64,000 nucleotides of DNA from a virus, in the IMG/VR virus record IMGVR_UViG_3300027863_000020, positions 86,818 through 150,817 of that record; one strand, given 5' to 3'. The translations under genes were made by a program, and so were the position numbers. The notes beneath the pieces are model-generated. The model searched no databases. It saw only the letters and a program-made list of their open reading frames with translations, and was not told where the DNA came from. Each line of letters opens with the position of its first letter. The first letter of the stretch is position 1. Positions 1,704-58,809 of the stretch are shown one piece after another.

Positions 1704-2012
1704 TTACTGTCCTTCCATCAAATCACCACCAAGGAAGTGGTCGGTCTGTTCCATGAGAAGATTGCGGGGATTCTTCGATTCTTCGAGGTTCTTCTTTCCT
1801 TCGAGCACCTTCTTCTCATCACCTTCCTTCAAGAGACGGTTGGCAATGCCAGTCGATACCTTGGAAAGAGCTTGCATGAATTCGTTGGAAAGGGGATCAT
1901 CGGAGAAGGCAAGACCCTTGAGCAACTGCACCGCTTTCGCCTGTGAGTCGTTGTCCTTGCCCCAATCGGTATCACCCAATTCCTTGATTACTTCTTTGAC
2001 CTTGATAGCCAT
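1704..2012 (-). CDS. putative head-internal protein with C-terminal LxEQ tag
   Basis: RNLLMEQTDHFLGGDLME motif shared with other late proteins. Confidence 0.6.
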   Translation of the reverse strand: MAIKVKEVIKELGDTDWGKDNDSQAKAVQLLKGLAFSDDPLSNEFMQALSKVSTGIANRLLKEGDEKKVLEGKKNLEESKNPRNLLMEQTDHFLGGDLMEGQ

Positions 2013-2016
2013 TTGA

Positions 2017-2508
2017 TTACCCCTTCAGATTGATGGAGTAGGTCATCTTGGCGATGTCGAGAACACCAGTCACCACGCCCTTACCGACCACTTCAACGAT
2101 CTTGTTCAAAGTTGAAATCTCTTGGGGATCGACTGCGACAACGATGGATTTCTCATCGGATGTCATGCGAACACGGCTTCCCAGAGTGGCGGTGATTGCG
2201 GACATCACATTGGAAAGAACTTCGCTTTCGTTGATTTCTTCCGTGGTCTCTTCGGATTCATCATCCTTCTTGGGGATTTCTTCCGATTCGGTAGAAGAAG
2301 CATTCGCTTCGGGAGCGGATTCGGGAGCGGATTCGATGACCGTACCAACGGGAAGGTCTCCTTCAACACCGTCTGCTTGGATGCTTTCGCCTTCCTGTAC
2401 GGTGTGTGGGGTTTCCAGAGTCTCATTGACGGAAGTGTCCACGGGGGTCACTGTCACGCCAACGGGGACTTCAGGGGTTTCGTCTGTGATGATCGGGTTC
2501 TTTGCCAT
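2017..2508 (-). CDS. acidic hypothetical protein (putative head/core protein)
   Basis: Glu-rich ORF, GAGGA RBS, late motif CTAAATA at 2532-2538. Confidence 0.7.
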   Translation of the reverse strand: MAKNPIITDETPEVPVGVTVTPVDTSVNETLETPHTVQEGESIQADGVEGDLPVGTVIESAPESAPEANASSTESEEIPKKDDESEETTEEINESEVLSNVMSAITATLGSRVRMTSDEKSIVVAVDPQEISTLNKIVEVVGKGVVTGVLDIAKMTYSINLKG

Positions 2509-2534
2509 AGTATCCTCTGTGTGGTTTCTTGTAT

Positions 2535-2717
2535 TTAGTTCATCAAAGTATGAAGGTCTTTGTGGTCGGGAATCAGGCTCTTTGTCTGCTCATCGAACTT
2601 CTTTTGATTCTCAATGAGCATATCGGACACACCATCCCAGAAGTCATCGTCTAGCTTCGAGTAGTCCACCGTTGCATCGGATTCTATCAGGTCGGAAAAA
2701 TCCGATAGACGGCTCAT
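2535..2717 (-). CDS. small acidic hypothetical protein (60 aa, MSRLSDFSDLIES...)
   Basis: ATGA overlap with the upstream gene; start refined from the ORF track. Confidence 0.6.
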   Translation of the reverse strand: MSRLSDFSDLIESDATVDYSKLDDDFWDGVSDMLIENQKKFDEQTKSLIPDHKDLHTLMN

Positions 2718-3055
2718 AATGCTTCCAATTTCTTGATGGCCTTCTGTATTTCTTTGAGACCCTTGGAAGCCTTTTCCTTTGCCTTGGATACCAGAACCTT
2801 GGCTTCGCCCTTGTCCGTCCAACTCCCGATTCCATCAAGGAATGCTTGTGCGCCCTTGAGCGTGTCAATCGCACTAGCGTATTCCTGATTGATGGAGAAG
2901 ATAGCTTCGCCCTTTTCACCAATAGGATCGACTGGATCGGATTCGCCATCCATATCATCGGGTTCGAGAGGTGGAGACCCACCCTCTTCTTCCAAGAGAT
3001 TGTCCACTTCACGGAACAATCTTCCAATGATCCTATTGTGATTGACGAAGTTCAC
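2714..3055 (-). CDS. acidic hypothetical protein
   Basis: 4-nt overlaps with both neighbours; weak tag-like LFREVDNLLEE. Confidence 0.65.
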   Translation of the reverse strand: MNFVNHNRIIGRLFREVDNLLEEEGGSPPLEPDDMDGESDPVDPIGEKGEAIFSINQEYASAIDTLKGAQAFLDGIGSWTDKGEAKVLVSKAKEKASKGLKEIQKAIKKLEAL

Positions 3056-3693
3056 TTGATTACCTCAAAGCAACTTGGAATTGACGGGCGTTCCTTGCTC
3101 CAACCCTTCTCATATTCCGCAACCACCCCGCCATCGGGGAATTCGTCAATGTCCCATCCATTCCACTTGTAGCGAATCTTCTCCTGTTTGGAGAACGCAA
3201 CATCCTTCCAGTAGGCATTGAACATGGATTCGGAAATGGTCTCTTCCGATTCTTCGTTCTTCGGACGGAACTTCGTGGTCATGGTGTATTCGGTCATGCC
3301 ACGGGTGTTGAGGAATACGGTCTTGCGAATGCGAGTGTCAATCTCATCATTGGGCTTCAATATGAAACCCTGTACGATCTTTTCGGTACTGAATTTGGTC
3401 TCTTGTTTCACCAAGTCTGGAACCTTCCTCAATTTGAAGGAAAGTTCGTCTTCGATCTCCACACTTTCTTCAAGGACTTCTCCAAGAAGGTATCCAACCT
3501 GTTCCTCAAGGGTGGATTTCAGGCCAAGCATCTTCTTGAGGATTCCCGTGACATAGGCATAGAAAGAATCACCATCGGATTCCTTGTGGCCTTCATCATT
3601 TGCCAATTTCTTGGCTTTGTCCCATAGGCGTTCTACTTCGGCAATGGGCTTACCGCTTTCTTTGGCGAATGATTTGAGTGCGGGTGTTGGCAT
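3052..3693 (-). CDS. fusion: N-terminal phage helical domain + LEEQ tag + CYTH-like (triphosphate tunnel) domain
   Basis: EDELSF...IVQGFI...TRIRK...YTMTTK...EKIRY...WDIDEF...VAEYE follows the CYTH motif order. Confidence 0.6.
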   Translation of the reverse strand: MPTPALKSFAKESGKPIAEVERLWDKAKKLANDEGHKESDGDSFYAYVTGILKKMLGLKSTLEEQVGYLLGEVLEESVEIEDELSFKLRKVPDLVKQETKFSTEKIVQGFILKPNDEIDTRIRKTVFLNTRGMTEYTMTTKFRPKNEESEETISESMFNAYWKDVAFSKQEKIRYKWNGWDIDEFPDGGVVAEYEKGWSKERPSIPSCFEVIK

Positions 3694-3694
3694 A

Positions 3695-4096
3695 TTATTC
3701 CTTGAATGAGAGGCGTTCTTTGATGAACGATTTGACCTTCTTGACCATCTTTCCTATGGGCTTCCCGTCAAGAACACCAATGCTTGCTTCGCACAATTCG
3801 TACAGAACATCTTGCTTGTCAATCTTGGCATCGTTGGCCTTCGGATTGCTTCTCAATTTCTCCGATTGGCTTTCGTGAATAGCCATTCGTTTCTGAATGG
3901 CCTTCTTGTCATACTTGGAAGACAACCAGACGATGTAGTCGTTGATGTAGCCTTCGTCCATCTTCAAAAAGTCGGATGGTTCCTTGTCGGCAAGGATCTC
4001 TGCCAATGCGTCCAAGTGGTCTTTATCCTCTTGCATGAGGGAACCACCAAGCAAATGATCTGTCTGTTCTTCGAGAATGCTTGCCTTCATAACCAC
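3695..4096 (-). CDS. putative head-internal protein with N-terminal LEEQ tag
   Basis: KASILEEQTDHLLGGSLMQE. Confidence 0.65.
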   Translation of the reverse strand: MVMKASILEEQTDHLLGGSLMQEDKDHLDALAEILADKEPSDFLKMDEGYINDYIVWLSSKYDKKAIQKRMAIHESQSEKLRSNPKANDAKIDKQDVLYELCEASIGVLDGKPIGKMVKKVKSFIKERLSFKE

Positions 4097-4098
4097 TC

Positions 4099-5157
4099 CT
4101 ATTTCTTCAATGACTTGTTCTTTCTGCGTTGAGCCATCGTTGCCCGATATTTGGAGAACATCTTGCGCTCGATATTCGGAATCAGATTGGCTCTGCGTTT
4201 GACCATTGCATCAACATCCACCTTTGCGCTCAAGGAAAGATCGTCATACTTTCCACCCTTGGACTTGGCGAACTTGTTTTTCAAGAATTTGATTGCGGCT
4301 TTGTGGACTCTGCTCTTGACCGTCTTCATGTCGGTACGGAAGAACTTGACCTTCCTACGGGCTTTCATCTTGGAGGCCATGCGCTTCATCCTACGACCCG
4401 CTACGAGCTTCCTACGGATCAATTCACCCTTGTTCAAAGGCTTCTTGAAGACCGCTTCTTCGATGACCGCACAAAGCTCCTTGTCCAACTGGATATTGAA
4501 CTCATCATTCATCTCTTGCATGAGGGTGAACGATGAAAAGTTCTCCATCTCGAACTTCTGGTATTCGGCCTGTTCCTCAAGGGTAGGCTCTTCCTCTTCT
4601 TCGTCCAGACGGGGATCGTCAATTTCGATCTCTTCGTCCAATCCGTTCATTTCATACGGGGTATCATCAATCTCTTCGTCATCGTCTGGATCATAGAACA
4701 GGTCATCATCGAATTCGGTGGAATCCACTGCGTCATCCGCATCATCGGAATCGTCTGCCAGATTGACAAGGATTTCAGCAACCTTGTCGGCAACCTTCTC
4801 GATGAAGTCTTCATTCGACCAACACCATTCCTTGCCTTCGTCCTGTTCTTTGTACAGTTCGGCATCGGGATCGGCTTCGGTCTTTTCCTTCTCTTCGGGC
4901 AACTGGTCTCCCGCCTGTGGACGCTTTGCGGGGCGAACCCATCCACGCCCATAGACCTTGTAATCGCCCAAGGAATTGGAATCAATGGCACTGGAACCAG
5001 ATTGAGCGGGTTCCCCTTCTTCCTTGAGAACCTTCTTGCCTTCTTCCATGATACCCAACCGTGTGCTCTCTTGAATACCCAAGGCACGATTGATGATGGA
5101 AGCAACCTTGGGATGCGGTTGTGCGTTCTGCATGAAAATTGAGGTAGGGGATTTCAT
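4099..5157 (-). CDS. putative prohead core protein (acidic middle, very basic C-terminus)
   Basis: D/E-rich centre followed by an Arg/Lys-rich helical tail, as seen in T4-like core proteins; PTLEEQAEY motif. Confidence 0.55.
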   Translation of the reverse strand: MKSPTSIFMQNAQPHPKVASIINRALGIQESTRLGIMEEGKKVLKEEGEPAQSGSSAIDSNSLGDYKVYGRGWVRPAKRPQAGDQLPEEKEKTEADPDAELYKEQDEGKEWCWSNEDFIEKVADKVAEILVNLADDSDDADDAVDSTEFDDDLFYDPDDDEEIDDTPYEMNGLDEEIEIDDPRLDEEEEEPTLEEQAEYQKFEMENFSSFTLMQEMNDEFNIQLDKELCAVIEEAVFKKPLNKGELIRRKLVAGRRMKRMASKMKARRKVKFFRTDMKTVKSRVHKAAIKFLKNKFAKSKGGKYDDLSLSAKVDVDAMVKRRANLIPNIERKMFSKYRATMAQRRKNKSLKK

Positions 5158-5165
5158 AGAAGCTC

Positions 5166-5567
5166 CTAGAACTTGATCTTGTGGGAAATGAACCAGTCTG
5201 CGACCTCTGCTTTCTTGACGATGGTGAGTTTTCCATTCGTCAATTGGGAAAGGGTCTGTGTCGGGTCACAATCAATCATATCCCACTCACGGAGTAGCTT
5301 CGCAACAAAGCCAAGCCTATCCTTGTCATCCTGTGAGAGATTATCGTATGCGTTCTTGTAAGTGAGTAGGAACCATTCCTTGAAATGGATAAGGAAGAAT
5401 TTGGTCTTCCCCTCAATTTCGGTATGGTACAGGTACACACTTGGGGCAAGGGCTTTCTGATAGACCTTGTTCACAACTTCGGGTGCGGGGGGACGAACCT
5501 TGACACCGATTCGGTTCAGAGTTTCACGCACCACATTGGGTTTCACTTTCAAAGATATTTCGATCAT
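5166..5567 (-). CDS. regA: translational repressor RegA
   Basis: MIEISL..VRETLNRIGV..FLIHFKE..LSQDD..LLREWDMI..W matches T4 RegA. Confidence 0.9.
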   Translation of the reverse strand: MIEISLKVKPNVVRETLNRIGVKVRPPAPEVVNKVYQKALAPSVYLYHTEIEGKTKFFLIHFKEWFLLTYKNAYDNLSQDDKDRLGFVAKLLREWDMIDCDPTQTLSQLTNGKLTIVKKAEVADWFISHKIKF

Positions 5568-5599
5568 ATAGTTTCCTGTCCTTATACTCTATTTATGCG

Positions 5600-6490
5600 T
5601 CATGCTTTGGATAGGTCTAGGACTGGTGGATTTTTGGATGGTTTGGTTTTTACCAACTTCGTGAACTTCGCAAGACGCTTGAATGCCTCTTCATTGTTCA
5701 CCGTCAATCCGATTTCCTTGGCGGTTTCATTGTTCAAGAAGTCGGTGAAGTTGGTCAGGTCTGATTGACCGAATACTACGATGAGGGGGTATTTGTCGGA
5801 AAGACCAGTGATGGTCAATGATGCTCCCCCTGCGTTGTTGATCCCAATACAGGCTTCGGCCTTGATTTCGGAATTGAACGCAACCACCACCGATTTGCTT
5901 CCTTCAAAAAGGGTTGCGAAATTCGGGAAGGTATCACGGTAATTTTCGGAATAAGTCAGGAATACGCTGTCTGCCTTGATGCGACCGCCTTCTGCGAATG
6001 AAAATGCGGTATCCATGCCAACGAAGTTCTTTACCCGTATTCCCGCCTTGATTGATGTGAGTCTGTGGGAGACAACGGTTCCATTCCAATCAAGGCCATC
6101 TAGCATACACCCGAATAGGGAAATGCGCCCATTGATGCTACCACCGATGAAATGGGCGTTTGCGAACACCATGTCCTTTTCATACTGGTTGTTCTTCAGT
6201 ATCAATCGGGAATAGAGACTGGTGTTTCCCACCGAAGTAGTCGTGCTTTCCATGTTGAGGGCATCGGCATACGAATGGATCGAATGTGATGCGGTCTGCG
6301 ATAACTTCCCGTCCTTAATTTCACCAATGAATGCGCCATTCTTCTTGTAAACATTGGTGACACCATTTCCGCTTACTCCATCAAGCCCTTTCCAGAGTTC
6401 CACCCATTTGGCATCGGGATAGAAATACTTGACAACGGTATTCTTGGTCGTACCTGTCTTTTCGTAGTATCGCTTCAAAACGCTAATCAT
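5600..6490 (-). CDS. hypothetical protein (possibly structural)
   Basis: ATGA-coupled to the gp3-like gene. Confidence 0.65.
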   Translation of the reverse strand: MISVLKRYYEKTGTTKNTVVKYFYPDAKWVELWKGLDGVSGNGVTNVYKKNGAFIGEIKDGKLSQTASHSIHSYADALNMESTTTSVGNTSLYSRLILKNNQYEKDMVFANAHFIGGSINGRISLFGCMLDGLDWNGTVVSHRLTSIKAGIRVKNFVGMDTAFSFAEGGRIKADSVFLTYSENYRDTFPNFATLFEGSKSVVVAFNSEIKAEACIGINNAGGASLTITGLSDKYPLIVVFGQSDLTNFTDFLNNETAKEIGLTVNNEEAFKRLAKFTKLVKTKPSKNPPVLDLSKA

Positions 6491-7080
6491 ATCGCATCCA
6501 CCTCTGTTCGAGCACCTTCCCATTCGCTAGGATGTGCTTTGTCATCGCTCGATTGACCATCATTGACACCGATGTAGTCGAACTCCAAATCTTGTGCGGT
6601 CAATGAAATGGTGAAGTCGAGTTCTTCGGAAGTACCCGATACCATCGTCAAGGAAGAGATTGAAGTAAGACATACATCCAACAATCGGATTCGGAGTCGT
6701 TCCCGCTTCTGCGTATCAAGCAACCAAGCGGTGCAATGCGTGATGAAGTTCATGTACGGAGCGGGAACACCGTTCCGATTCTCCACGCTTCCACGCCTTA
6801 ATTGATACCACCATTTCATAAACCACCAATAGTTCTCGAATCCTTCGGAGACCTTCATGGTGATCGTGAATGGAAACAATCCCTGATTTCGGTTGGGATT
6901 CATGTTCATCATTTCTCTTCCCGCAAAGAACGAACTGATATTGTCCACGGTCATATCGGGAAGAGTGAAGGTTGTGATGTACTGATCGAACAATCGAAGA
7001 TCGACCTTCTCACCTTCTGCACTAGGCATATCACCAATGGCAAAACGCCATTTGTCCGCTTTGGCTACATTCGGTATCAT
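6487..7080 (-). CDS. tail completion/tube terminator, T4 gp3-like
   Basis: FTLPDMT..FTITMKVSEGFENYWWFMKW..LTSISSL; tube-fold gp3 pattern; AGGAG RBS. Confidence 0.65.
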   Translation of the reverse strand: MIPNVAKADKWRFAIGDMPSAEGEKVDLRLFDQYITTFTLPDMTVDNISSFFAGREMMNMNPNRNQGLFPFTITMKVSEGFENYWWFMKWWYQLRRGSVENRNGVPAPYMNFITHCTAWLLDTQKRERLRIRLLDVCLTSISSLTMVSGTSEELDFTISLTAQDLEFDYIGVNDGQSSDDKAHPSEWEGARTEVDAI

Positions 7081-7081
7081 A

Positions 7082-9455: not shown

Positions 9456-9492
9456 GGGACACCTCAAAGGTATTTATGATGTCCCGTAAACG

Positions 9493-17964: not shown

Positions 17965-17993
17965 AATATATACTATGTATCTTGTATAATCAA
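17965..17993 (-). promoter_or_regulatory. early-type promoter with ACAAGATACA box
   Basis: TTGATT-ATACAAGATACATAGTA-TATATT. Confidence 0.8.
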
Positions 17994-18379
17994 GTGGTAT
18001 TTATGTCAATTAGGATAATTTCTTCACGATCTGCCAATTTCGGCTCCACATAGGCATCATAATCCCATTTCAGTTCCTTGAACATCATCCTGAAAAGGAA
18101 TTCGCCATTGGGGGTATCTTCGATTATTGGTAATTGGGCAAGGCATTGACGGAACATATTGTCCGTCAATTGATATTCGACTCCATCAATCTGGAAATAC
18201 CCCGCCCTCTTGACGAAGTTTCGCCAAGATGCGTCAATTTCCTTGCATAGACGGACGGGGGATTGTTCGACTGGAAGCCTCTGCGAAAACCACACAAGCA
18301 TTTCCACCAAATAATTTCGAGCAACATCAAATGACGGATTCGCACGAAATTCCGTCAATACCGTGTAGAAAGTTCTCAT
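17990..18379 (-). CDS. hypothetical protein
   Basis: ATGA-coupled ORF. Confidence 0.6.
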   Translation of the reverse strand: MRTFYTVLTEFRANPSFDVARNYLVEMLVWFSQRLPVEQSPVRLCKEIDASWRNFVKRAGYFQIDGVEYQLTDNMFRQCLAQLPIIEDTPNGEFLFRMMFKELKWDYDAYVEPKLADREEIILIDINTT

Positions 18380-37878: not shown

Positions 37879-38076
37879 TCAATGGACTCCAAAAAGATGT
37901 ACGATTACCCAAAGGCCATCATCGGAATTGACCACTTCGGTTGTTGCGGAATAAAGCCCACAAGACTCATTTCTTCTCAATGACTCTTCCCGACACCTAT
38001 CAATAAAAGAAGCGTCATCCGACAACGCAAGTGCGGTGCATGGATAACGCTCTTCAGTTTCTAGCCTTTTACTCAT
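37879..38076 (-). CDS. small late hypothetical protein
   Basis: CTAAATA 5 nt upstream of ATG. Confidence 0.5.
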   Translation of the reverse strand: MSKRLETEERYPCTALALSDDASFIDRCREESLRRNESCGLYSATTEVVNSDDGLWVIVHLFGVH

Positions 38077-38091
38077 ATCTCTATTTAGGCA

Positions 38092-41000
38092 CTACCCATA
38101 TCGGAACTCCATTTCGGATTTGATCTGGACAATTTCGTTCCGCATCGTGTAATTGACGATGTTTCCGTAGCTGTCCAACATACCCGCACGAATCGCCTGT
38201 GTCAATCCATTGTGGAGCTTGAGCATCAATCCCTTGAACGAATTGGACTTGATGAACTTCTCGACATTCGATTGAGCATCGGTATCTTCCAAATATGCGC
38301 TCGATTGGAGAAGCGTATTAACCTGATCCTTGATGTCATTGATATTGAACGAACTACCATCCGCTCCAAACTCATTGAGGAACAGATTGAGGATTAGACG
38401 GTCGGTTGTGTAGAAGTCGGGCGATACCGTGTCTGCTTTCTTCTTCGCAATCGCACGGAGTTCGATGATGACATTCCGCATGACCGTGTGGTAGAACCAA
38501 CGCTCACTGATTCCACCGATCCTGTGGTGCATCTTCGATTCGGTGACCCATGCTTCATCCGCTTCTCCCTTGATAGGAGCGTTCATCCGCCAAGGGGTTC
38601 CCGTTGCAGTGACCCTCTCGAATTCGGTGATGTCGAGAAGCGCATTATACTTTCCATTGCTCCATTCATCCTTGGTCAAAGGGAATAGCTCACCGCACCG
38701 TGTCCAATCTTGGTACAGGTCATAGTAGTAGCTGTTCGCCCAATCACCCCAAGGAATAGCCTTGATGCTTTCGTGGCAATCCGTCCCTCTGCTGTTCTTG
38801 TATGGGGCGGGGATATGATCCCGCAACCCAAACGGAGTACAGGCTTCGGCAACGGGGTCTGTGGTAGGCACGGTCGTTGTCGGAATAGGGGTAGGACAAG
38901 AACAATACTTGTGATGAATCACATCGAACAACCGCTTCACTTCCTTGGTAATGGCGGTCTGGAACGCTTCCACCAAATACACCTTCGGATCGAATCCAAG
39001 ATCATTATAGACTTCGACCATATTGGTAACGACTTCGGCAATCAGTCCAAGGTTGTTTCCCAAGTTTCCAGTATCGGAGGTGAACGAAATACGAATAGGA
39101 GCCTGTGGATCGTATGGGGCGGTTTCCCATGCGGTTCCAGTCCACTTGATGTATTCCTGTGAACGGAGACCATACGGAGCAACGGAAATGATGCTTCCTA
39201 CTGTCGGGATATGGAACTGATAGTATGCGTATGAAGTCATAGTGCTTCCGTTATATGACTTCTGCCATACTTTCTGCACCAACGCATAAGACGAAGGTGG
39301 TTGATTGTTGGACGGGAAACCAGAAGGAATCGTTCCACGCAATACATACCACGCATAGGGATTCATTCCACCAAGACCGACTTCATCCGCATACCCTTGG
39401 CAATACCAATTGATCTGCGATTGGGTCGGGAACATTTCGGTGATTTCACCAAAGAAGTAATTGACACCACCATCTTGGGAAAGACGGAGTTTCTTGCCAA
39501 TCAGTTCATTGTAGTTAGCAACCGTGTATGTACCGTCTTGGGTAATCTTCCCTTCGGAATCGGGAATTACCGTGAATTGACTCGCATGAACATCGGGGTA
39601 CACACCATTCTGAAGAGCAAAGAATCGGTCATACTCATACGGAATCTGCGACATCATTTCTGGTTCGGTCATCCAGTCATTGATGACCATTCCATTGCTT
39701 GCGACTGGAATGAACTTCAGGTCGGCACGGATCACATCGGGGTTGTTCTTCGCAATGGAATTGATATGGGAAATCAACACGGGGGTATTGAAATTGACAT
39801 TCGCATCAAGGAATTCGTAGATAGCCGTTTCAACATCGGTACGGACTTTCTCAATATCGGCAAAGTCACGCACCCACACCTGTCCACCCAATTTGAACTC
39901 TTGAACAATCGGGGTGATGTACCGTGGCTTGGTTGTCAATTGTCCACGGGCTTCGAGCATAGCCGTCAATTGAGCTACTGGATGACCCTGTGGGAATTGA
40001 TCGACCATCGCAATCTGGTCATCGGTGTACGGGGGATTGGTACGATTGAAGAACTCTTCGTAGAGCTTCCGTTCATATTCCCGCATGAGAATGACGGAAT
40101 CGGCTACAAGGATGTTGAAGTACGCTTGTTCGGAATACTGGTCGTAGTCGAATCCTTCGAGCAAGCCGTTCTCATTGAGAGTCGTTGTCGTTCCATCGGG
40201 AACCGTCCCACGGATCAATTGTTTCGGAACATACCGACCATCGCTAGTCCGTTCGTAGAGATGCCCAAGGACGGAATAATAGACATGGTTCGCATACCGC
40301 CTGTTTGCCCTGTACCCGCTCTGCTGTACTTCTTCCTGTTCACCCCACGCAATCGCATGACGGACACGGAGAGGGCTTGCTAGGGAGGAAAGAAAGGTGG
40401 CATAATCGCCAAGGCCAACCAGACGGTCAAGGGAGTTGTAGATAGCAGGGGCATTGTTCTTGATTGACTCAATACTCTCCATATCCGCACCACCGCCCAC
40501 ATTCGTCCCAAGAAGAACGGTGAGCATTTGGGAGATGTCCAGAAGGTTGGGCATCGTGGCATAGATAGGATTGACGAACTGGATGGCGGTTCCACGGGAA
40601 CCCACCTCATTGGCGGTCGTTCCCTTGGTAGCCAAATACCTGATTCGGATGACATGATCGCCCTTGGGCATCATCGCAACATACCCATCGCCAAACATGA
40701 CCTCGACACCACCGCTCTTTGCTGTTCGGATCACGCACACACGGGGGATATTGTCTTCAACAAGGTCTCCATCCTCGTTGTATCGCTTGTCGTAGGTATC
40801 ACGGTACAGAGTTTCGTGATTTACCAAAGAACGCCTGTCAATCTTGTACAGGGAGCTTTCGTCATACGGGGGATCATCCACATAGGCACTGGAAACCTGT
40901 GTGAACCCACTGGAAGGTGTCCAAAGACCCGTCACCTGATTGTAGGCACGGGGGTCATTGTTGCCGAACCAGTCGGAGAATTCGGGATCATTGATCTCGT

Positions 41001-49161: not shown

Positions 49162-49685
49162 TTCTTCGTTCCCGTCACTACCTTGGGGGGTCGCTTGTCC
49201 ACAACCTTGATGGTTTTTGTGACCTTTTCGGGATCGGTCTTCTTGGCTCCATCGGCTTCCGCATCCCTGAAAGCCTCAATCGCCTTGAACACCCTGTCTT
49301 GGAACGCCATCGCAACCCGTCTGATCGCATCGGCATTGTCGAAGCGGAAACGGGTCTGGAACCTAACCCAAGTCTTCCCCTTGTCCTTGGACATGAACTT
49401 GGAGAAAACCGCCTCTGGAACGATGTCAGGGTTGCGAATGATGCGGACATCCAAGTCTTCGGTCTCTGGGAATGACACCAGATTGACGATGGACTGATCC
49501 CCTACATCATACGACTGCATGAGGACATCATAGCCATCGAGCCGATTTCTAGCGTCTGGAAGGACATAGGATGCCTTCTTGAGCGCACTGGATACCCGCT
49601 TCCAATGGGAGGCCAATTCCTCTGCGTATTGGGTAGGGGATTTGGCCTCTTCGAGCAAAGATGTTCGGATGTTCCGTTTCATCAA
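49158..49685 (-). CDS. late hypothetical protein (possible head-internal)
   Basis: N-terminal RTSLLEE; coupled to the 49682-50047 gene. Confidence 0.6.
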   Translation of the reverse strand: MMKRNIRTSLLEEAKSPTQYAEELASHWKRVSSALKKASYVLPDARNRLDGYDVLMQSYDVGDQSIVNLVSFPETEDLDVRIIRNPDIVPEAVFSKFMSKDKGKTWVRFQTRFRFDNADAIRRVAMAFQDRVFKAIEAFRDAEADGAKKTDPEKVTKTIKVVDKRPPKVVTGTKN

Positions 49686-50047
49686 TATCCACCGACACGG
49701 AAACCGAAGGTGATATTGACGGGCTTGCGGTCGCCATCAATTTCAACGGTCGATGTGAACCGATAATCACACGCCTGTACGATCTGGTCTTCACCCGCAT
49801 AAGGGCTTGGCTTGGAACTATCATAGGTTTCCTGAATGGACGCAATACGGAGAACATCCACAATGCTTTCATCGGAAATACCCTTGATATGGGTTTTGAG
49901 CCAAGTCGAAGCCATCCCCTTGATCGAATCGAACAGTTCGGGGGACTTGGACTCTTCGAGCATCCGATAGCCCTTCTGTGGGGTCTTATTGGGGGAGATA
50001 ATGGCATCCCCGCCCAAAAGATCATCAATTTCATCAAGCATGGACAT
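49682..50047 (-). CDS. late hypothetical protein with tag-like N-terminus
   Basis: MSMLDEIDDLLGG; CTAAATA at 50075-50081. Confidence 0.6.
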   Translation of the reverse strand: MSMLDEIDDLLGGDAIISPNKTPQKGYRMLEESKSPELFDSIKGMASTWLKTHIKGISDESIVDVLRIASIQETYDSSKPSPYAGEDQIVQACDYRFTSTVEIDGDRKPVNITFGFRVGGY

Positions 50048-50074: not shown

Positions 50075-50092
50075 TATTTAGTTGCATAAATA
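50075..50092. promoter_or_regulatory. back-to-back divergent late promoters
   Basis: CTAAATA (-) at 50075-50081 and ATAAATA (+) at 50086-50092. Confidence 0.7.
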
Positions 50093-50144: not shown

Positions 50145-50720
50145 ATGACAAAGAGAAGCGTACTTGAAGAACAGGTTGCGTACCTGTTGGAAGAAGAAAC
50201 CGACATCGAGACCACCGACCACCCCGGTCGTTCTGGTGAAAACCACAAATACAATGCTTCTTTGAAGCGTCTGGAAGAATCCAAGAAGCGTCTGCTCAAA
50301 GCACAGGACGAACTTGGTGATGAAGAGCTTTCCGAAGAAGACGAAGCCATCAAGGGCAAGATCGGCAAGGCCGTTGATGCCATTGATGATGCCATGAAGT
50401 CCATCAAGGAAGAGTCGGATGACTCGGACGAAGATGACGAAAACGGTGACGAAGATGTTGCCGAAGAAGGCAAGGGCAAGAAGAAGCTCCACCAGAACCA
50501 GAAGGGCAAGAAGCTCCACCAGAACGAAGATGGTGACGAAGATGGTGATGGTGAAGACAAGGACAAGAAGGTTACCGAAGAAGGCAAGGGCAAGAAGAAG
50601 CTCCACCAGAACGAAGATGGTGAAGATGATCCCGAATTCGTCAATGAAGAAGACGATGACTCCGATGAAGATGACGAAGGCAAGAATGTCGAAGAAGAAG
50701 GCAAGGGCAAGAAGAAATAA
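50145..50720 (+). CDS. acidic/basic repeat protein with N-terminal LEEQ tag (putative head-internal protein)
   Basis: KRSVLEEQVAYLLEE; repeats of EEGKGKKKLHQNEDG; GGAG RBS; terminator follows. Confidence 0.75.
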   Translation: MTKRSVLEEQVAYLLEEETDIETTDHPGRSGENHKYNASLKRLEESKKRLLKAQDELGDEELSEEDEAIKGKIGKAVDAIDDAMKSIKEESDDSDEDDENGDEDVAEEGKGKKKLHQNQKGKKLHQNEDGDEDGDGEDKDKKVTEEGKGKKKLHQNEDGEDDPEFVNEEDDDSDEDDEGKNVEEEGKGKKK

Positions 50721-52343: not shown

Positions 52344-52348
52344 AAAAA

Positions 52349-52380: not shown

Positions 52381-52383
52381 GCG

Positions 52384-52878
52384 TCAATTTGTCGGAAGGG
52401 GTGGGCGAACCAGATTTCTCAATGTAGATGTGAAATTGCTAGTGATTTTCTTTCGCCTTCTGTTTGGCTTCGTTGGATTCGCTTTCCGATATTCAAGAAT
52501 GCGGTCAATCTTCTCATTCGTCAATTTCTTCGCTTCGACAACCAACGGAACAATATCGAGAACGATTCCTGTCTCATACCAGAAGTCGAATTGATAAAAG
52601 AAGTCATCCATAGGCTCGTATTCATAATCCCGTGGCTTGTAGTGATGAGCACCGTATAGGCAATAAAGCTCTCCATCAATTCCGAAATTGAACGGACGGA
52701 AATTGACTCTCCCGATTGACACGCCATTGTGTGATACGAAGATGCGACACCACCGACCACCATCCCAAGCAACGCCTTGACGGTTCAACTCGAACTTGTA
52801 TTTCGGGAATGCGGTACGAACCGCATTGACGAACTCGCCAATGTCGATTCCAGTTTTCTCTTTGTCTCTAAAGACCAT
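52384..52878 (-). CDS. hypothetical protein
   Basis: Tiling with neighbours. Confidence 0.6.
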   Translation of the reverse strand: MVFRDKEKTGIDIGEFVNAVRTAFPKYKFELNRQGVAWDGGRWCRIFVSHNGVSIGRVNFRPFNFGIDGELYCLYGAHHYKPRDYEYEPMDDFFYQFDFWYETGIVLDIVPLVVEAKKLTNEKIDRILEYRKANPTKPNRRRKKITSNFTSTLRNLVRPPLPTN

Positions 52879-53119
52879 ATTTCGCCCGTTCCTTCTTGGA
52901 CAACTTGTTCAAGTTCCTACCATTGACAACTCCCTGCAATGAGTGGAGTTTATCGAAATAGTGATACATTTTCGCCCATCGACCACTGTACCGATCACCA
53001 CGCTTGTTCAACCTTTTCATCGCCCTGTCATGCCTCTTCCGCATATTCGGGGATAACTTCTTCGATGGTGGATTGAACAACTGATTGAGGAACGAAATGA
53101 ACATACGGATGTAATTCAT
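52868..53119 (-). CDS. small basic hypothetical protein
   Basis: GAGG RBS; ATGA overlap. Confidence 0.55.
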   Translation of the reverse strand: MNYIRMFISFLNQLFNPPSKKLSPNMRKRHDRAMKRLNKRGDRYSGRWAKMYHYFDKLHSLQGVVNGRNLNKLSKKERAKYGL

Positions 53120-53262
53120 CGCACCCTCACTGGATCATTGACGAACTTGATGTGCTTCAATTTACGAAGAGACGATGCCATTTCCATCGCCTCTTTATGG
53201 CTAGATGCAAACGCACAATTTGGAAGGAAGTCGGCTTGATAATCAACCCGCCATTCTTCCAT
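53116..53262 (-). CDS. 48-aa hypothetical protein (absent from ORF track)
   Basis: MEEWRVDYQADFLPN...; fills the gap and is ATGA-coupled. Confidence 0.45.
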   Translation of the reverse strand: MEEWRVDYQADFLPNCAFASSHKEAMEMASSLRKLKHIKFVNDPVRVR

Positions 53263-53270
53263 TGATTGAT

Positions 53271-54062
53271 TTAATCCATGAGCCACTGGACGGTTCCTTC
53301 TTCATACATTTCAAGCTCTTCGTTGTCATAACGAATGTACCCATCAAATCGCTCTCCCTTATCCGATAGAGCAAACTGTTTGAAGTGGGCAAGGACTGTC
53401 TTGTGGTTATTGGTGAACTGCGGGTCGAATCCCCGTTGGAAGATCAACCAGAAGTGCATACGCTCTTCAGTCCAGAACCAATAATTCTTGATCTTGTTCG
53501 TAGCCAAGAAGTTCATTCGGTCTTCGACTGCCTTGGTATCGGCAACGCCTTCGTAGATGTCCATGTAGCAAAGATCGCACTTCTGATTGACGAACTTTTC
53601 ACGGATGTCACCAACCACGAATTCGATCTTGGAGAATCCTTCCCTGTCACCATAGCATTCGGTGAAGTAATCGACTACCTTCTGCTGATATTCATAGACC
53701 ACGATCTTTTCGATGTGGGTCATGCCCATGATTCGAGCGACATAGTATCCAAGGCCAAGACCACCGACCACGACCGTCTTGATCTTTTTTTCGGAGGCCA
53801 ACTTGATAGGGATGTAATGGGTTTCGGCTTCCATCGGAGTAATCGACATCCACAACTTACCGTCAATTCGGAAGGTGGGGAAGTTCTCGATTGACCCAAA
53901 TGATTTGTAATATGCGCCATCAACCCGACCGAACATTTCAGGAACCATCTTCACAACGATTCCATTCTTCTCATACGGGACTGGATTGAACCGACCGATT
54001 TCCTTCTGGTAATAGTCGGGATCGAATGGGGACTCAACTGCTGTCTTTGCTTTCTTTGCCAT
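53271..54062 (-). CDS. class I SAM-binding protein, spermidine-synthase-like methyltransferase
   Basis: WMSITPME, VVVGGLGLGY, IVVYE, VVGD, DLCYMDI. Confidence 0.75.
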   Translation of the reverse strand: MAKKAKTAVESPFDPDYYQKEIGRFNPVPYEKNGIVVKMVPEMFGRVDGAYYKSFGSIENFPTFRIDGKLWMSITPMEAETHYIPIKLASEKKIKTVVVGGLGLGYYVARIMGMTHIEKIVVYEYQQKVVDYFTECYGDREGFSKIEFVVGDIREKFVNQKCDLCYMDIYEGVADTKAVEDRMNFLATNKIKNYWFWTEERMHFWLIFQRGFDPQFTNNHKTVLAHFKQFALSDKGERFDGYIRYDNEELEMYEEGTVQWLMD

Positions 54063-54091
54063 GTTTTCAACCTATCGTAAATGATGACGGA

Positions 54092-54301
54092 CTATTTTAC
54101 CAAGTGCGAGACATTGTTGATTCTCAAAACCCACTGCCCACGCTTGTTCTTAAATGGAGTCGCTTTAGACATTTCGGAAAGAATGTTCTGGATGTCGTGT
54201 ATCGACACTTCAGATTCCATTGTTTTCGGAAAAATCAGAGCAATATCGACACGACCATTTTCTTCAATTTTCAAGAACTCAACATCTTTCCGCATACCCA
54301 T
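54092..54301 (-). CDS. hypothetical protein, first gene of early operon
   Basis: AAGGAG RBS; promoter at 54327-54355. Confidence 0.6.
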   Translation of the reverse strand: MGMRKDVEFLKIEENGRVDIALIFPKTMESEVSIHDIQNILSEMSKATPFKNKRGQWVLRINNVSHLVK

Positions 54302-54326
54302 CGTGAACTCCTTTGCTTACACTTTG

Positions 54327-54355
54327 AATATACTCAATGTATCTTGTATAGTCAA
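54327..54355 (-). promoter_or_regulatory. early-type promoter with ACAAGATACA box
   Basis: TTGACT-ATACAAGATACATTGAG-TATATT. Confidence 0.85.
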
Positions 54356-55122
54356 TAGTATAAATAAAATTTTCCTTGATTTATCAAGAAAACACCATCG
54401 GAGCAATTGAGGGTGTATCCATTCAGATAGGGGAGCATTCCGTCCAATTCGGTGTCCTTCAATATCAATTTGGTGGAACTGGCTACTATTTCCACATGAT
54501 GCGAGTCTCCCATCACGCCCCGTCCAGTGCAATTGTACCCGAACAGAATGGGGGAATCTTCTGGATGCGGAACGAATGCCAACCGCTTGAACATCCTGTC
54601 AATCAAGTCGGAGTCTTCGCCCGTGTTTTTGTCGCTGAATCCACCCATCGACAAGATGAGTTTGCGACTTGCGAACAGGGTTGGTTCGATGATGAGCCAA
54701 GGACGATCCGCTTTACCACCGACATCCTTTCGGAGAAGGTATGCGGTCTTCTTCTGCTCAAAGACATGGATGTATCGGGAGAATGCGGTGAAGGCTACAT
54801 CCCGACTCTGATTGACGATTGAAAGCTGATATGCCAATCTGTCGGGATGGTGGATGTCATCGTCATCGAATGTGGCAATCCACGGCCTTGTCGCTTCGTG
54901 TACGCCCCTGTTTCGTTTAGACCCTAGCGTCCCCTCATGGGATACTACCTTGGCATTTACGCCCTTGGAAACGGTCAATAACCACTCATTGAACTTGTCC
55001 CCATCGGAGTGGATTATGATGAGTTCCTTCTGCACGATGGTCTGCTTCGAGAACATTGAAATGGCACGGACGATGTAGTCTTCCCGCCCCAATTGAGCAA
55101 GCATGATACAGGAAACGCTCAT
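54352..55122 (-). CDS. GT2 glycosyltransferase
   Basis: VSCIM, QT...ELII, LGSKRNRG, IATFDDDDIHHPDRL..Q, GEDSDL. Confidence 0.88.
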   Translation of the reverse strand: MSVSCIMLAQLGREDYIVRAISMFSKQTIVQKELIIIHSDGDKFNEWLLTVSKGVNAKVVSHEGTLGSKRNRGVHEATRPWIATFDDDDIHHPDRLAYQLSIVNQSRDVAFTAFSRYIHVFEQKKTAYLLRKDVGGKADRPWLIIEPTLFASRKLILSMGGFSDKNTGEDSDLIDRMFKRLAFVPHPEDSPILFGYNCTGRGVMGDSHHVEIVASSTKLILKDTELDGMLPYLNGYTLNCSDGVFLINQGKFYLYY

Positions 55123-55982
55123 CGGTTCTCCACGGATTCAACGATTTCGGTTAGCTTGACGATCAATTCCTTAACCTGTGGAATTGTCAATTGAACATAG
55201 TCGGTGTCTATGTTCTGAATTGTCAATTCAACTTCGGCTCCCGTCTGCTCATAAAAGACAGGATCGTTCACCGTGAGGTAGTCACCAATCTTTGTTTTCA
55301 TACCATACCCGTAAATGTCGTTGAGGTTCCGCTGTACCATGAGAGTACAGGCGCAATCGTAGATAGCCGTGTGTGGGTTGGGACGCTCGAACGGATTGGC
55401 ATTTCCATATCGGAGATACCATTTACCATGCTCCAATGTCCGCATGAGGAAGTCGATGGTTCCTTTCAAGTCGAACTGCTTGACAAGGTTTTGGAGGGAG
55501 CACGAAGTTTTCTCAATCTTGCCTTCTTCCATCAAGAGCTTATAGCCCGTCTTGGTGTCAATGATGTGCTCTGGCTTGATGAAGTCCGTCAATTTCCATC
55601 CCCAATTCATACCCTCAATCATGTTGATGTCGTATTGAGGAAAGCTACCCACCATATAGACTTCAAGGTCTTGCCCGTATCTGTCCTTGGCTAGAAAGAT
55701 CGTTCGCTCGATTGCGTATTTGATGTCATCTTTCCAATCGGCATCGGATTCTCTCTTGTCAAGCTCTTCATGGGTCACACCACCCACGGTCAATGCTTCT
55801 TCGGTGCGTTCCCGACCAACGGGGTTGAATTCCCAATACCCAAGGTATTCGGGACGGACGGAGAAGATAGGGGAATTCGGAACGATGATTTCACCGATGA
55901 ATCCAAGCGAATGAACCCCGTTCTTTTCTGGATCGAATCCAGTGGTTTCGGTATCGAGATGTAGAATTAGGCTATGTGACAT
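55119..55982 (-). CDS. DnaQ/DEDDh 3'-5' exonuclease
   Basis: LDTETTG, YDI, IDT, HTAIYDC. Confidence 0.85.
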   Translation of the reverse strand: MSHSLILHLDTETTGFDPEKNGVHSLGFIGEIIVPNSPIFSVRPEYLGYWEFNPVGRERTEEALTVGGVTHEELDKRESDADWKDDIKYAIERTIFLAKDRYGQDLEVYMVGSFPQYDINMIEGMNWGWKLTDFIKPEHIIDTKTGYKLLMEEGKIEKTSCSLQNLVKQFDLKGTIDFLMRTLEHGKWYLRYGNANPFERPNPHTAIYDCACTLMVQRNLNDIYGYGMKTKIGDYLTVNDPVFYEQTGAEVELTIQNIDTDYVQLTIPQVKELIVKLTEIVESVENR

Positions 55983-55991
55983 GAGTTCCTT

Positions 55992-56270
55992 TTATGGATC
56001 GAGTGCGTACACAACAAACCAATCACCCCTTGGAGTAGGAACGGTTATCATTCCCACAATCAGGTGTTGGCGACAATAGTAATAATGGGTGATATTCGCA
56101 TCTTCTTTATCGGTCGATACGGATATTTCGGACAAGTAATTGTACTCATCGGAAGTCATATCCCAAAAAGATTGCATGGGTGTTATGAAACACTCATGCA
56201 CATCTTCTGGGATATTTTCCGCTATTTTGGGGAATCGCTCTTTAAGCGGATTGGGCATCTTTTTTGGCAT
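55992..56270 (-). CDS. hypothetical protein
   Basis: Start uncertain; overlaps the upstream gene. Confidence 0.45.
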   Translation of the reverse strand: MPKKMPNPLKERFPKIAENIPEDVHECFITPMQSFWDMTSDEYNYLSEISVSTDKEDANITHYYYCRQHLIVGMITVPTPRGDWFVVYALDP

Positions 56271-56571
56271 ATAGCTCTGTCCAGAGGTTCGACTTGCAAA
56301 TGTCCCGACCCATTTCAAACCGCTCAATCGGGATTTCATTTGCAATCGTATTCACTTCAATTTTCCGAATATCGTCTTCAGCCGTGGAAGGGATTGGGAA
56401 GAACCAAACCATCTTGGCTTCCGCATAATTGATCTGTTCGGTACGGTTGGCCTCAATGAACACGATGTCCTTGAATCCTTCCTCTTCCATCACGAATTCA
56501 GCAAGTCGCTTTCCGATTTCCGTATCAAGGGAGAATCCGACCAGATAGATTTTGAACCTTCCAATTGGCAT
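56242..56571 (-). CDS. hypothetical protein
   Basis: AGGGGG RBS. Confidence 0.55.
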   Translation of the reverse strand: MPIGRFKIYLVGFSLDTEIGKRLAEFVMEEEGFKDIVFIEANRTEQINYAEAKMVWFFPIPSTAEDDIRKIEVNTIANEIPIERFEMGRDICKSNLWTELYAKKDAQSA

Positions 56572-56580
56572 AAAGCCCCC

Positions 56581-57453
56581 TTATTTGGTCATCAATGACA
56601 ATCCGTTGATTGTCACCGACCCCTTTCCTTTTGGTGTCCAGAAATAGAACGACAACTTGGCTACTCCACAACTGGATTCGGAGCAGAAGCCAACGCCACA
56701 CAATCCATCCACGCAATACTCAAAAACTATTGCAGATTGAGGGAAATCCGAAGATAGATTGTAAATCCATCCATCGCCATTGCTATCCATGAATGGAGAC
56801 GGTGTTGATCCACCCCTTCTCGAATCAAAATAACCACCAACATTTGATTCATAAACGAATCCATAAAAAGAGGGAAGCAGGGCTTCGACTTTGCTATGGA
56901 TCATTGTGTCGATTATGTTGACCATTTGTCCATCGACATAATCGCTCCTATGAATGAAAGTAGTATCATATCCGATGTTTCTCACCGAATCGGCATACAC
57001 GGACTTCAAGTACATTCCGATGATGTTATGGAAGTCGATGTCCGATGAAATTGAATACTCAATCTGAATCATGGTGTTCCCGCCAAGCCAAGAACCTTCA
57101 TCCTTTGCATCATAGTCGATCCTGATTGACGAATCCGAAATAACCTTCAATGTGGCGGTTGATGTGGGGCTAGGTACTGCTGTCTTTCCATTATCATAGA
57201 TCACCTTTACAACTGGTGCTCCAATGGTGGAGAGAAGAAGAGTGTCGGACAATCCATCCGATACCGAAGCACTGGACTGGATTGACGAACGGAGTTCCGA
57301 AGAACTGGATTGGTCAATCTGGGAACTACTGGATACGGTGATACTGGAACTGAATGAATCGTCAATCGGCTCTTCGTATGCCATAGTGGATACCCCTTGC
57401 TCGTTGCAAGCAAAGAGTATGAAAGCGATTAGGATGATGATTAGCTTTTTCAT
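56581..57453 (-). CDS. lipoprotein with Ser-rich linker
   Basis: MKKLIIILIAFILFA-C lipobox; SSS/SSSS tracts; AGGAG RBS. Confidence 0.8.
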   Translation of the reverse strand: MKKLIIILIAFILFACNEQGVSTMAYEEPIDDSFSSSITVSSSSQIDQSSSSELRSSIQSSASVSDGLSDTLLLSTIGAPVVKVIYDNGKTAVPSPTSTATLKVISDSSIRIDYDAKDEGSWLGGNTMIQIEYSISSDIDFHNIIGMYLKSVYADSVRNIGYDTTFIHRSDYVDGQMVNIIDTMIHSKVEALLPSFYGFVYESNVGGYFDSRRGGSTPSPFMDSNGDGWIYNLSSDFPQSAIVFEYCVDGLCGVGFCSESSCGVAKLSFYFWTPKGKGSVTINGLSLMTK

Positions 57454-57471
57454 GGTTGTCTCCTGTTTTGG

Positions 57472-57849
57472 TTAAAGTCCGATAATGGGATTGAATCCCT
57501 TGAAGTGTTCTTGAATCGTTTTCTTTGCCCACCGATCTGGTTCTGGATTGATTCCAAGCAATTCCAGTTCGGCCTTGATTGTCTTGTAGCGGTGGATACC
57601 TTCTTCGGTGGCATCGCAAGTATTGTCTTCGGATATGGTCACAAGACCAGAGAGGTATTGGTCAATGCGCCCACGAACGAATGCGATTGCATTGTCCGTG
57701 TCTTCATATTCTTGACCGCCCACATCGGCAACCAGAGCACCGATTGGCTCACCGAATTGACGAAAGCATTGGTTCCATAAAACCACGGAACGGAGAATGG
57801 AATAGTCAAGGACATCCATTTTAGCCAAGCGATTGAAGGTCACGATCAT
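57472..57849 (-). CDS. hypothetical protein
   Basis: ATGA-coupled. Confidence 0.6.
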   Translation of the reverse strand: MIVTFNRLAKMDVLDYSILRSVVLWNQCFRQFGEPIGALVADVGGQEYEDTDNAIAFVRGRIDQYLSGLVTISEDNTCDATEEGIHRYKTIKAELELLGINPEPDRWAKKTIQEHFKGFNPIIGL

Positions 57850-58136
57850 TTGGATTCCCCCTTGCTTGTATCGACTTCCCGAATGAGCATCCAATTCATC
57901 CGTGTGCGTGATACGATTCCTTTCTCTGCCAACTCTTCACAAAGTTTATTCCTGTGGGAGAGCATGGTCATAATGGAATCATCCAATGCCTTGAGTTCTT
58001 CCGCTCCATCAAGAACGGTCACTCCAAGAGTCTTCCCAAGATTGGCGAATCCCATCATTACCATCCTTGGGATAGAGAACACGAACTTCGCGATCTGTCC
58101 GACCGTTATGTTCGATATTGTATCAATCTTTCCCAT
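57846..58136 (-). CDS. hypothetical protein
   Basis: Behind promoter 58179-58207. Confidence 0.6.
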   Translation of the reverse strand: MGKIDTISNITVGQIAKFVFSIPRMVMMGFANLGKTLGVTVLDGAEELKALDDSIMTMLSHRNKLCEELAEKGIVSRTRMNWMLIREVDTSKGESK

Positions 58137-58178
58137 TTTTCAACCTATCATATATGCGGGATTATTCCCTACTCTTTC

Positions 58179-58207
58179 AATGTATCTTGTTTAGTACAAA
58201 AAGTCAA
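58179..58207 (-). promoter_or_regulatory. early-type promoter with ACAAGATACA box overlapping the -10
   Basis: TTGACT-TTTTGTACTAAACAAGA-TACATT. Confidence 0.7.
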
Positions 58208-58245
58208 GGGGTTTTGAAAAATAAGTTCAAACCCCCTAAATTGAC

Positions 58246-58809
58246 TCAAAATGTGGATTCCATCGCATCAATCTGGAATTGATCGTAGATTGATTGCAAG
58301 AAGTCCTTTACGGATACAGGTGTATTTGGCGTGTGGTAGCCCTCATAGCCCGTATGATCGGTGATTGATAGGAAGAATGGGGAGTTGTGCAATGGAGAGT
58401 TGGAATGCCCGAAAATGCACTTGTAAAAGGTCTTCTTCATGGCATCAATCATACATTCCCGATAAATCTCTTCTAGGGTCTGTGGCATGGGTTCTCGGAT
58501 AACGACCAACTTGGTCAATACCCACCCATCCTTCTTGTCAAACATTTCGATTGACGCTAGATAGAACTCATCACGCCCGACACAACGCCCGAAGAAGTCG
58601 ATCTTGTATCCATCACGCTTTGAAGCGGGGATCAGTTTGAGGTAATAGTCGGGGTCTTCGTTTAGGTGTGTCAGTGCAATACGCAATGCTTCATTGGGGT
58701 CATCGGTATGCTCATATTCTTCGGTCTGCCCGACCGATACTTGAGCGAGTTTGGAAGCATCTTCATCGCCCAAGAAATAGTCGGCTTGTTCTTCAATGAG
58801 GTTCCGCAT
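58246..58809 (-). CDS. LxEQ-tagged protein with DUF5661-like domain
   Basis: MRNLIEEQADYFLG; G..EEYEHTDD...ALRIAL.HL.EDPDYY.KL. Confidence 0.7.
   Translation of the reverse strand: MRNLIEEQADYFLGDEDASKLAQVSVGQTEEYEHTDDPNEALRIALTHLNEDPDYYLKLIPASKRDGYKIDFFGRCVGRDEFYLASIEMFDKKDGWVLTKLVVIREPMPQTLEEIYRECMIDAMKKTFYKCIFGHSNSPLHNSPFFLSITDHTGYEGYHTPNTPVSVKDFLQSIYDQFQIDAMESTF

Follow-up and report, generated by a model that had tools for sequence, protein, structure and literature searches.

Why should several proteins, probably expressed late and with otherwise unrelated bodies, share one short peptide, and why should that peptide stand at the start of some, in the middle of another and at the end of yet another? 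This question is raised by the window analysed here, the whole 64,000-nucleotide stretch of DNA presented above, which is the terminal 64 kb of a 150,817-bp IMG/VR virus record (IMGVR_UViG_3300027863_000020) rated as complete by CheckV. Five proteins encoded in the window and a sixth encoded elsewhere in the same genome carry the peptide, referred to below as the tag, whose conserved part is 13-21 residues long. In the reading favoured here, to which a probability of roughly 65% is given, the tag is the capsid-targeting and processing module of this phage lineage and a functional counterpart of the capsid-targeting sequence (CTS) of phage T4. Positions are those of the window unless they are given as genome positions, and the strand is indicated as (+) or (-).

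The tag consists of a basic residue, N or S, two hydrophobic residues, E or M, and E, followed by Q-x-x-[YH]-[LF]-L-[GE]. Usually, a second site of the form hydrophobic-x-E-E/[SG] follows within a few residues (here and below, the slash marks the predicted cut). The initial annotation had listed five strong copies, and all of them lie in open reading frames (ORFs) where it had placed them. Carrier A (1704-2012 (-), 102 residues) has a C-terminal tag at 1728-1766, followed by L-M-E/G-Q and the stop codon. In carrier B (3052-3693 (-), 213 residues), the tag is internal (3481-3519) and lies between a 57-residue N-domain and, after V-L-E-E/S, a C-domain (residues 76-213) with a CYTH-like fold (Atlas TM 0.84 to CYTH clusters). 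The tag is N-terminal in carrier C (3695-4096 (-), 131-133 residues; tag 4046-4084, then L-M-Q-E), in the highly charged and repetitive carrier D (50145-50720 (+), 191 residues; tag 50154-50192), and in carrier E (58246-58809 (-), 187 residues; tag 58768-58806), in which a DUF5661 domain is present. The CYTH-like and DUF5661 assignments of the initial annotation are thereby upheld. When its strict pattern was applied to the whole genome, a sixth copy was found outside the window, at the N-terminus of carrier F (genome 18988-19743 (-)), a P-loop kinase of the Zeta_toxin/AAA_33 type. This domain resembles polynucleotide and nucleoside monophosphate (NMP) kinases, the fold search having returned generic P-loop kinases only, and no solved structure was found for it in a PDB profile search. 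The other three bodies (A, C, and D) belong to no family, and no homologues of E or of the C-domain of B were found in cultured phages.

In six-frame space, the core pattern was observed 6 times against 0.0096 expected matches and the strict pattern 5 times against 8e-6, and none of 200 shuffles contained more than one core match. When profiles were built by leaving out one tag at a time, each omitted tag ranked sixth with an E-value between 1e-3 and 2e-8, and the best ORF outside the carriers had an E-value of at least 0.1. The tag copies differ from one another at synonymous sites and the DNA upstream of them is unrelated; therefore, as previously proposed, the peptide rather than the DNA is conserved. 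A DNA-level repeat and a mobile promoter-leader cassette are ruled out by the same two observations. The three "weaker copies" that had also been reported (4099-5157, 49682-50047, and 2714-3055) reach about 5 bits or less with two profiles, the wider of which was built from 19 tags of relatives, and are noise. A search of 1.84 billion representative proteins with the tag profile returned, at E < 1e-3, only proteins of this phage or of close relatives, and a pattern scan of IMG/VR DNA gave same-sample fragments and chance matches only. In one metagenome, no match was obtained with the tag profile, and the DNA pattern scan gave 41 unrelated matches, such as FtsH and response regulators. In the AlphaFold model of the kinase, the tag is drawn as a low-confidence helix (residues 3-13) on a flexible linker.

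The head genes of the phage provide the context for this peptide. Judging by its sequence, the phage is a member of a deep, uncultured T4-like branch, because its gp23 is only about 27% identical to that of cultured phages (the nearest being cyanophages) and IMG/VR contains only same-sample fragments of it; a search for close relatives there with RegA and gp23 as anchors likewise gave same-sample contigs only. The presence of a gp21-type prohead protease, anticipated by the initial annotation, was borne out: a Peptidase_S77 protein is encoded at genome 37769-38458, with a PF03420 match at 37904-38317 (E-value 1e-15). Between it and the capsid protein gp23 (genome 39512-41065; PF07068, E-value 6e-59) lies the gene of the 300-residue scaffold gp22 (genome 38567-39469), which is very rich in L/I-x-E. 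The genome also contains a portal gene, and RegA, a gp5-like hub protein, and a deoxynucleoside monophosphate kinase are encoded inside the window.

The first half of the tag recurs in these head-maturation proteins. The post hoc pattern [LIVM][LIVM][EQM]EQ occurs 5 times in the carriers, once in gp21, 4 times in gp22, and once in gp23, and is absent from the other 46,125 residues (Fisher p 1.2e-10). For the simpler [LI][EM]EQ, taken from the initial annotation, the corresponding counts are 6 in the carriers, 3 in gp21 plus gp22, and 2 in the remaining 46,125 residues (Fisher p 1e-4). One of these two remaining sites belongs to a 352-residue acidic protein (4099-5157 (-)), a neighbour of C in the operon of A, B, and C, which has the half tag T-L-E-E-Q-A-E-Y. 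In gp23, the half tag is found at residues 61-65, A-F-L-M-Q-E/Q, at the propeptide junction. The equivalent place reads S-F-L-T-E65/A in T4, A-F-L-S-E/A in Melnitz, and A-F-L-G-E/I in HTVC008M, so that an A/S-F-L anchor is common to this gp23 and T4 gp23. T4 gp23 is matured by a cut after Glu65, and gp21 cuts after L/I-x-E (PMC9026906). Because the half tag is found in gp21, in gp22, and at the gp23 junction, the first half is, on this sequence evidence, very probably a site for the protease of this phage.

Such predicted sites are both within and behind the tags. L-E-E/Q is present inside every tag, and further sites follow in F (L-L-E-E/S), B (V-L-E-E/S), A (L-M-E/G), and C (L-M-Q-E, a tetrapeptide also present where gp23 is predicted to be matured). 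The initial annotation had described several carriers as rich in such sites. This holds for C, with 52.6 L/I-x-E per 1000 residues against a genome mean of 11.4, a density equal to that of the gp22 scaffold, but the other carriers are not clearly enriched. The full tag, in turn, is not found in gp21, gp22, or gp23, all of which score under 10 bits, and none of their sites has the invariant half Q-x-x-[YH]-[LF]-L-G. Restriction of the full tag to passengers, as opposed to head proteins that assemble by themselves, would be expected of an address and fits this role rather than that of a mere cut site. The description of the tag as only a docking helix was thus overstated, since its first half is a protease-type site common to gp21, gp22, and gp23.

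Mimicry of the scaffold was also considered and rejected. The tag and the gp22 N-terminus look alike by eye, but the latter fails to rank among N-termini, the best one outside the carriers being that of gp21; when the gp22 C-tail is taken as the model, true tags do not score. Separately, the N-terminus of the protein encoded at 49682-50047 (-), M-S-M-L-D-E-I-D-D-L-L-G-G, resembles the gp22 tail F-D-A-I-D-D-L-L-P (genome 39440-39466). Its score of 34 is not significant, because the maximum reached by shuffled queries is 30 +/- 2.6.

The carrier genes lie in a late-type promoter context. The octamer CATAAATA is found 4-41 nt upstream of the portal gene, the gp21 operon, gp22, and other structural genes, and was used as the mark of a late promoter. 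One exact copy (5590-5597 (-)) lies 23 nt upstream of a regA homologue (PF01818; 5166-5567 (-)), which is followed by tightly packed genes including C, B, and A; another (50085-50092 (+)) precedes D, and a third (genome 19800 (-)) precedes F. For E, only the one-mismatch variant CCTAAATA (59815-59822 (-)) was found, upstream of the gp5-like hub gene (59084-59809; PF04717) two genes above E; it may act as a promoter as well. The earlier statement that the carriers lie downstream of late motifs therefore stands, with an exact late promoter for five of the six and the variant for E. The translational repressor RegA is an unusual operon partner for head passengers. Carrier D, whose ribosome-binding site is GGAGA, is surrounded by genes of the minus strand, although it is itself read from the plus strand, and has a late promoter to itself; its repeats, of the type E-E-G-K-G-K-K-K-L-H-Q-N, stand between acidic runs, and spurious ORFs in several frames result from its low complexity. 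Carrier E is translationally coupled to an 87-residue membrane protein.

A connection to the virion is provided by relatives of the kinase. This family is common in T4-like viral contigs (more than 525 loci), and its leaders were read in 75 ORFs from IMG/VR, which gave 48 distinct leaders. Of these, 41 are short and mostly follow M-K-T-F-x-E-L-x-E/G, close to the T4 CTS, and in 47 of the 48 the motif [LIVMF]-x-[EQD]-[GAS] stands directly before the kinase domain, including forms fused upstream to other domains. Carrier F has its 21-residue tag, ending in L-L-E-E/S, at exactly the place of the orthologues' leader; contig L017 has an intermediate leader form, and in the cultured phage Melnitz the leader reads M-K-T-F-A-E-L-Q-E/G. 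The kinase of phage Atu_ph07 is contained in a 778-residue, 87.07-kDa protein, which is equated here with gp53. The virion proteome of Atu_ph07 includes gp53 (87.08 kDa, from the cluster of coding sequences 31-76) with 31 unique peptides and 45.5% coverage, and gp53 is at its most abundant in gel band 9, where the other proteins have a mass of about 21 kDa (PMC6102473 Table S5). The kinase family is thus represented in the particle of one cultured T4-like phage, in a form trimmed to roughly the kinase domain.

The N-domain of carrier B leads to a similar comparison. A homologue with 43% identity is found in another phage (contigs L005 and L006, one lineage), where it is followed by L-K-S-F-K-Q-F-I-N-M-L-E/D, a peptide similar to the leaders (M-K-T-F-K-...) with which four genes nearby begin. 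One domain is thus joined to a CTS-like peptide there and to the tag here, each phage's own kind. The AT-rich contig L005 (IMGVR_UViG_3300025647_000382) has, at 505-3041, a run of small unrelated genes starting with M-K-T-F-K..., M-K-T-Y-E-E..., M-K-T-F-K-Q..., and M-L-R-F-K-T-F..., which looks like a T-even-style internal-protein locus. M-K-[TS]-[FY] occurs 6 times in 19 kb of L005 against 0 in the control; no enrichment of it at gene starts was found in HTVC008M or Melnitz, so that among these genomes it is confined to the L005 contig. No clear leader of the M-K-T-F type was found in the present genome. The sole N-terminus in it that resembles the classical T4 CTS is M-R-T-F-Y-T-V-L-T-E/F, at the start of a 129-residue ORF (17990-18379 (-)), upstream of which no late promoter was found.

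The initial annotation had stressed that the tag occurs in different parts of its carriers, and this freedom of position was confirmed: four carriers (C, D, E, and F) bear the tag at the N-terminus, B bears it between two domains, and A at the C-terminus, and its place also varies within single families. Relatives were found with the tag profile in a collection of 5.8 billion proteins. Among those of the kinase, P0007, P0008, P0009, P0014, P0016, and P0017 have N-terminal tag variants, P0013 has a tag at the N-terminus and another at the extreme C-terminus, and P0015 has an internal one; many [LIM]-L-E-E linkers separate the domains of P0013 and P0015. The kinase, DUF5661, and CYTH-like families keep the tag in relatives with 42-63% overall identity. 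The DUF5661 relative P0019, for example, is 42% identical to E overall, yet matches it at 13 of 16 tag positions. P0021 and P0023, homologues of the CYTH-like domain of B, start with the tag and do not have the 57-residue N-domain, which makes carrier B a fusion with the tag as its junction. P0011, a relative of A, has an extra domain of about 100 residues after its tag.

Variation is also seen within one population. In L011, a sibling contig with 96% identity, an in-frame deletion reduces A to a 22-codon ORF that is almost the tag only, and the sibling form of C (P0003) keeps the tag despite an in-frame deletion of 41 codons. With reference to the window, the two deletions, seen in L011 and L004 (IMGVR_UViG_3300027914_000071) from the same sample, correspond to 1765-2001 and about 3835-3953; small tagged genes are therefore highly plastic within a single population. 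The kinase relative P0009 (93% identity, on a 57.8-kb contig of the Joint Genome Institute) is interrupted inside its P-loop (G-G-P-G/C..., here with the slash at the insertion) by about 350 residues with Hint/homing-endonuclease domains (PF05204, PF05203). This insert is an intein in a putative head-passenger gene.

If the tag is a targeting and processing module, its action can be pictured as follows. Late in infection, as the gp23 shell closes around the scaffolding core of gp22 and gp21, the tag would keep its six passengers inside this core (the kinase F, the CYTH-like enzyme B, the DUF5661 protein E, and the small charged proteins A, C, and D). The gp21-type protease would then cut after Glu residues inside the tag and just after it, which would break the docking element and free the passengers in the head. 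The tag peptide would leave with the scaffold fragments, and the passengers would stay with the DNA. Because predicted cut sites bracket it, the tag would be excisable and could work N-terminally, between domains, or C-terminally. The cleavage steps are suggested by the sharing of sites and by positional homology, while docking to the core, retention in the head, and ejection with the DNA are proposed by analogy with T4 (PMC9026906, PMC3012670, PMC8442874).

Part of this evidence can be read differently. The tag might be an extended pair of prohead-protease sites, for instance within an inactivating propeptide, with entry into the head, if any, set by other parts of each protein. Such a role would account for a first half that is the same short site as in gp21, gp22, and gp23, for the second hydrophobic-x-E-E/[SG] site after most tags, and for a carrier C that is as rich in L/I-x-E as the scaffold itself. 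It is nevertheless unlikely: the Q-x-x-[YH]-[LF]-L-G half is not needed for cutting, because no site in the head proteins has it, yet it is conserved across relatives; the six unrelated bodies have no other common targeting feature; and a sibling strain keeps an ORF that is nearly the tag alone. Short motifs that work independently of position are also typical of binding to a hub, and the core decamer is found in unrelated cellular proteins as well (FtsH, response regulators), so that the tag could instead dock to a partner outside the head, such as the sliding clamp, RNA polymerase, a chaperone, or a host protease adaptor. However, the first half of the motif is shared only with head-core proteins, the orthologues have CTS-like leaders terminated by L-x-E at the same place, one homologue is a virion protein, and the carriers have late promoters, all of which make a non-head partner improbable. 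A sliding-clamp-type motif in particular was rejected, as nothing similar is present at the C-terminus of the DNA polymerase.

Three carriers are adjacent in one operon, and fusions and deletions have occurred at or near tags, as might be seen if the peptide had no function and were simply left over from a common ancestor or from the duplication of a DNA cassette with promoter and gene start. This explanation is close to refuted, given the synonymous codon differences, the unrelated upstream DNA, the retention of tags in relatives whose bodies are 42-63% identical, and their survival of two independent in-frame deletions. The same rearrangements can be placed in a more far-reaching picture, which is put forward tentatively and is itself doubtful as a whole. 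According to it, the tag would be a self-contained, excisable address cassette that functions wherever it is inserted, with a docking element and with protease sites in its middle and behind it. Recombination between tags would fuse and split passenger genes, as exemplified by the fusion in B, by A compared with P0011, and by the tag-only mini-ORF of the sibling strain. In this deep T4-like branch, the preference of the protease would have co-evolved and shifted to two hydrophobic residues, x, and E/Q, giving an addressing code orthogonal to that of T4.

Several points weigh against the favoured reading of the tag as a targeting and processing module. The statistically strongest of the half-site patterns was chosen with the data already in view, and beyond a generic hydrophobic and acidic pattern no significant sequence similarity links the tag to MKTYQEFIAE, the T4 CTS. 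Neither the N-terminus nor the C-tail of gp22 is significantly like the tag. Carrier E has no clear L-x-E site after its tag and only a one-mismatch promoter variant, and the operon of A, B, and C is headed by regA, a non-structural gene. The AlphaFold helix of the tag is of low confidence (predicted local distance difference test, pLDDT, below 50). Finally, the Atu_ph07 protein was matched to gp53 by molecular weight and genome position and not by accession. On balance, the part of the initial annotation that linked the tag to prohead maturation is supported by several lines, whereas its claims of novelty, of weak copies, and of a purely docking function did not hold.

Loading of proteins into the phage head by means of a short tag has been known as a concept since the 1990s. 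The internal proteins of T-even phages are a diverse set with only a conserved CTS in common (PMC3012670), and the CTS, with the sequence MKTYQEFIAE (PMC8442874), has been proposed as a general route by which varied proteins are loaded in T4-like phages (PMC9026906). In T4, C-terminal propeptides occur as well, on Alt and gp21 (PMC9026906). With portability among unrelated internal proteins thus already described (PMC3012670, PMC9026906), the tag is better regarded as a variant of the T4 CTS than as the new system that had been claimed. Like the CTS, it is a short peptide on unrelated proteins, with a hydrophobic-x-E cut site (here a predicted one) built in, and the genes of its candidate passengers are probably late. 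Both also resemble the core sites of their own phage, as seen in T4 from M-L-K-E-Q-L-I-A-E/A in the scaffold compared with ...E-F-I-A-E/A in the CTS, and orthologues of one carrier, the kinase, have T4-like CTS peptides at the same position. However, the tag has 13-21 conserved residues where the T4 CTS has 10, and its predicted cut sites are in mid-tag and after the tag, unlike those of the CTS. It is found internally and C-terminally as well, whereas the T4-type peptide is an N-terminal leader. The residue at P1' is Q or S instead of A or G, and the cargo includes predicted enzymes (P-loop kinase, CYTH-like) instead of the small basic proteins of T4.

In giant phages, head and ejection proteins are also processed from propeptides or polyproteins, by phiKZ gp175 and SPN3US gp245 (PMC5694885, PMC7411985, PMC10052503). 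There, as is proposed here, many proteins inside the head are cut after Glu by a gp21-related protease, and propeptides have several redundant sites; the long kinase relatives P0013 and P0015 look like such polyproteins in their [LIM]-L-E-E linkers. The sites of giant phages are nevertheless of the S/A/G-x-E type, no single portable address peptide has been defined in them, and the phage considered here is a 151-kb T4-like phage and not phiKZ-like. Encapsulins offer a likeness by analogy only, in that unrelated enzymes are sent inside a shell with the HK97 fold by a short portable peptide at one or the other of their ends. In contrast to the arrangement proposed here, the peptides of encapsulins attach to the shell protein itself and escape proteolytic removal, no scaffold takes part, and their sequences are unrelated to the tag. 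Within the searchable library, CTS-like leaders of marine T4-like phages were not the subject of any paper found, and neither was DUF5661.

Two further observations concern head-associated and late genes. In a phage that is not T4-like (L098, IMGVR_UViG_3300032046_002734), a 100-residue DUF5661 protein (2836-3138) is encoded beside the portal gene, and its other neighbour, 889 residues long, is head-morphogenesis-like and contains an H-E-F-G-H motif. A wider association of DUF5661 with phage heads is hinted at by this arrangement. In the window, a 290-residue protein (56581-57453 (-)) with a lipoprotein-type signal (L-F-A-C lipobox) and a serine-rich linker is encoded among the late genes.

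Because the concept has long been known, the advance made here is incremental. If the favoured reading is true, the rule established in T4, that a short tag with a protease site gives entry to the head, would extend to a distant uncultured branch, and a very different tag sequence, a free tag position, and enzymes as cargo would be added to it. The kinase of the (poly)nucleotide type and the CYTH-like triphosphate-tunnel enzyme would be plausible counter-defence or takeover factors for the first minute of infection, delivered with the DNA. A second, orthogonal tag could serve the packaging of proteins in engineered T4-type capsids, and such tags would allow the packaged proteome of a phage to be read from sequence alone. 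The P-loop kinase family itself emerges as a widespread and so far unrecognised candidate head passenger of marine T4-like phages.

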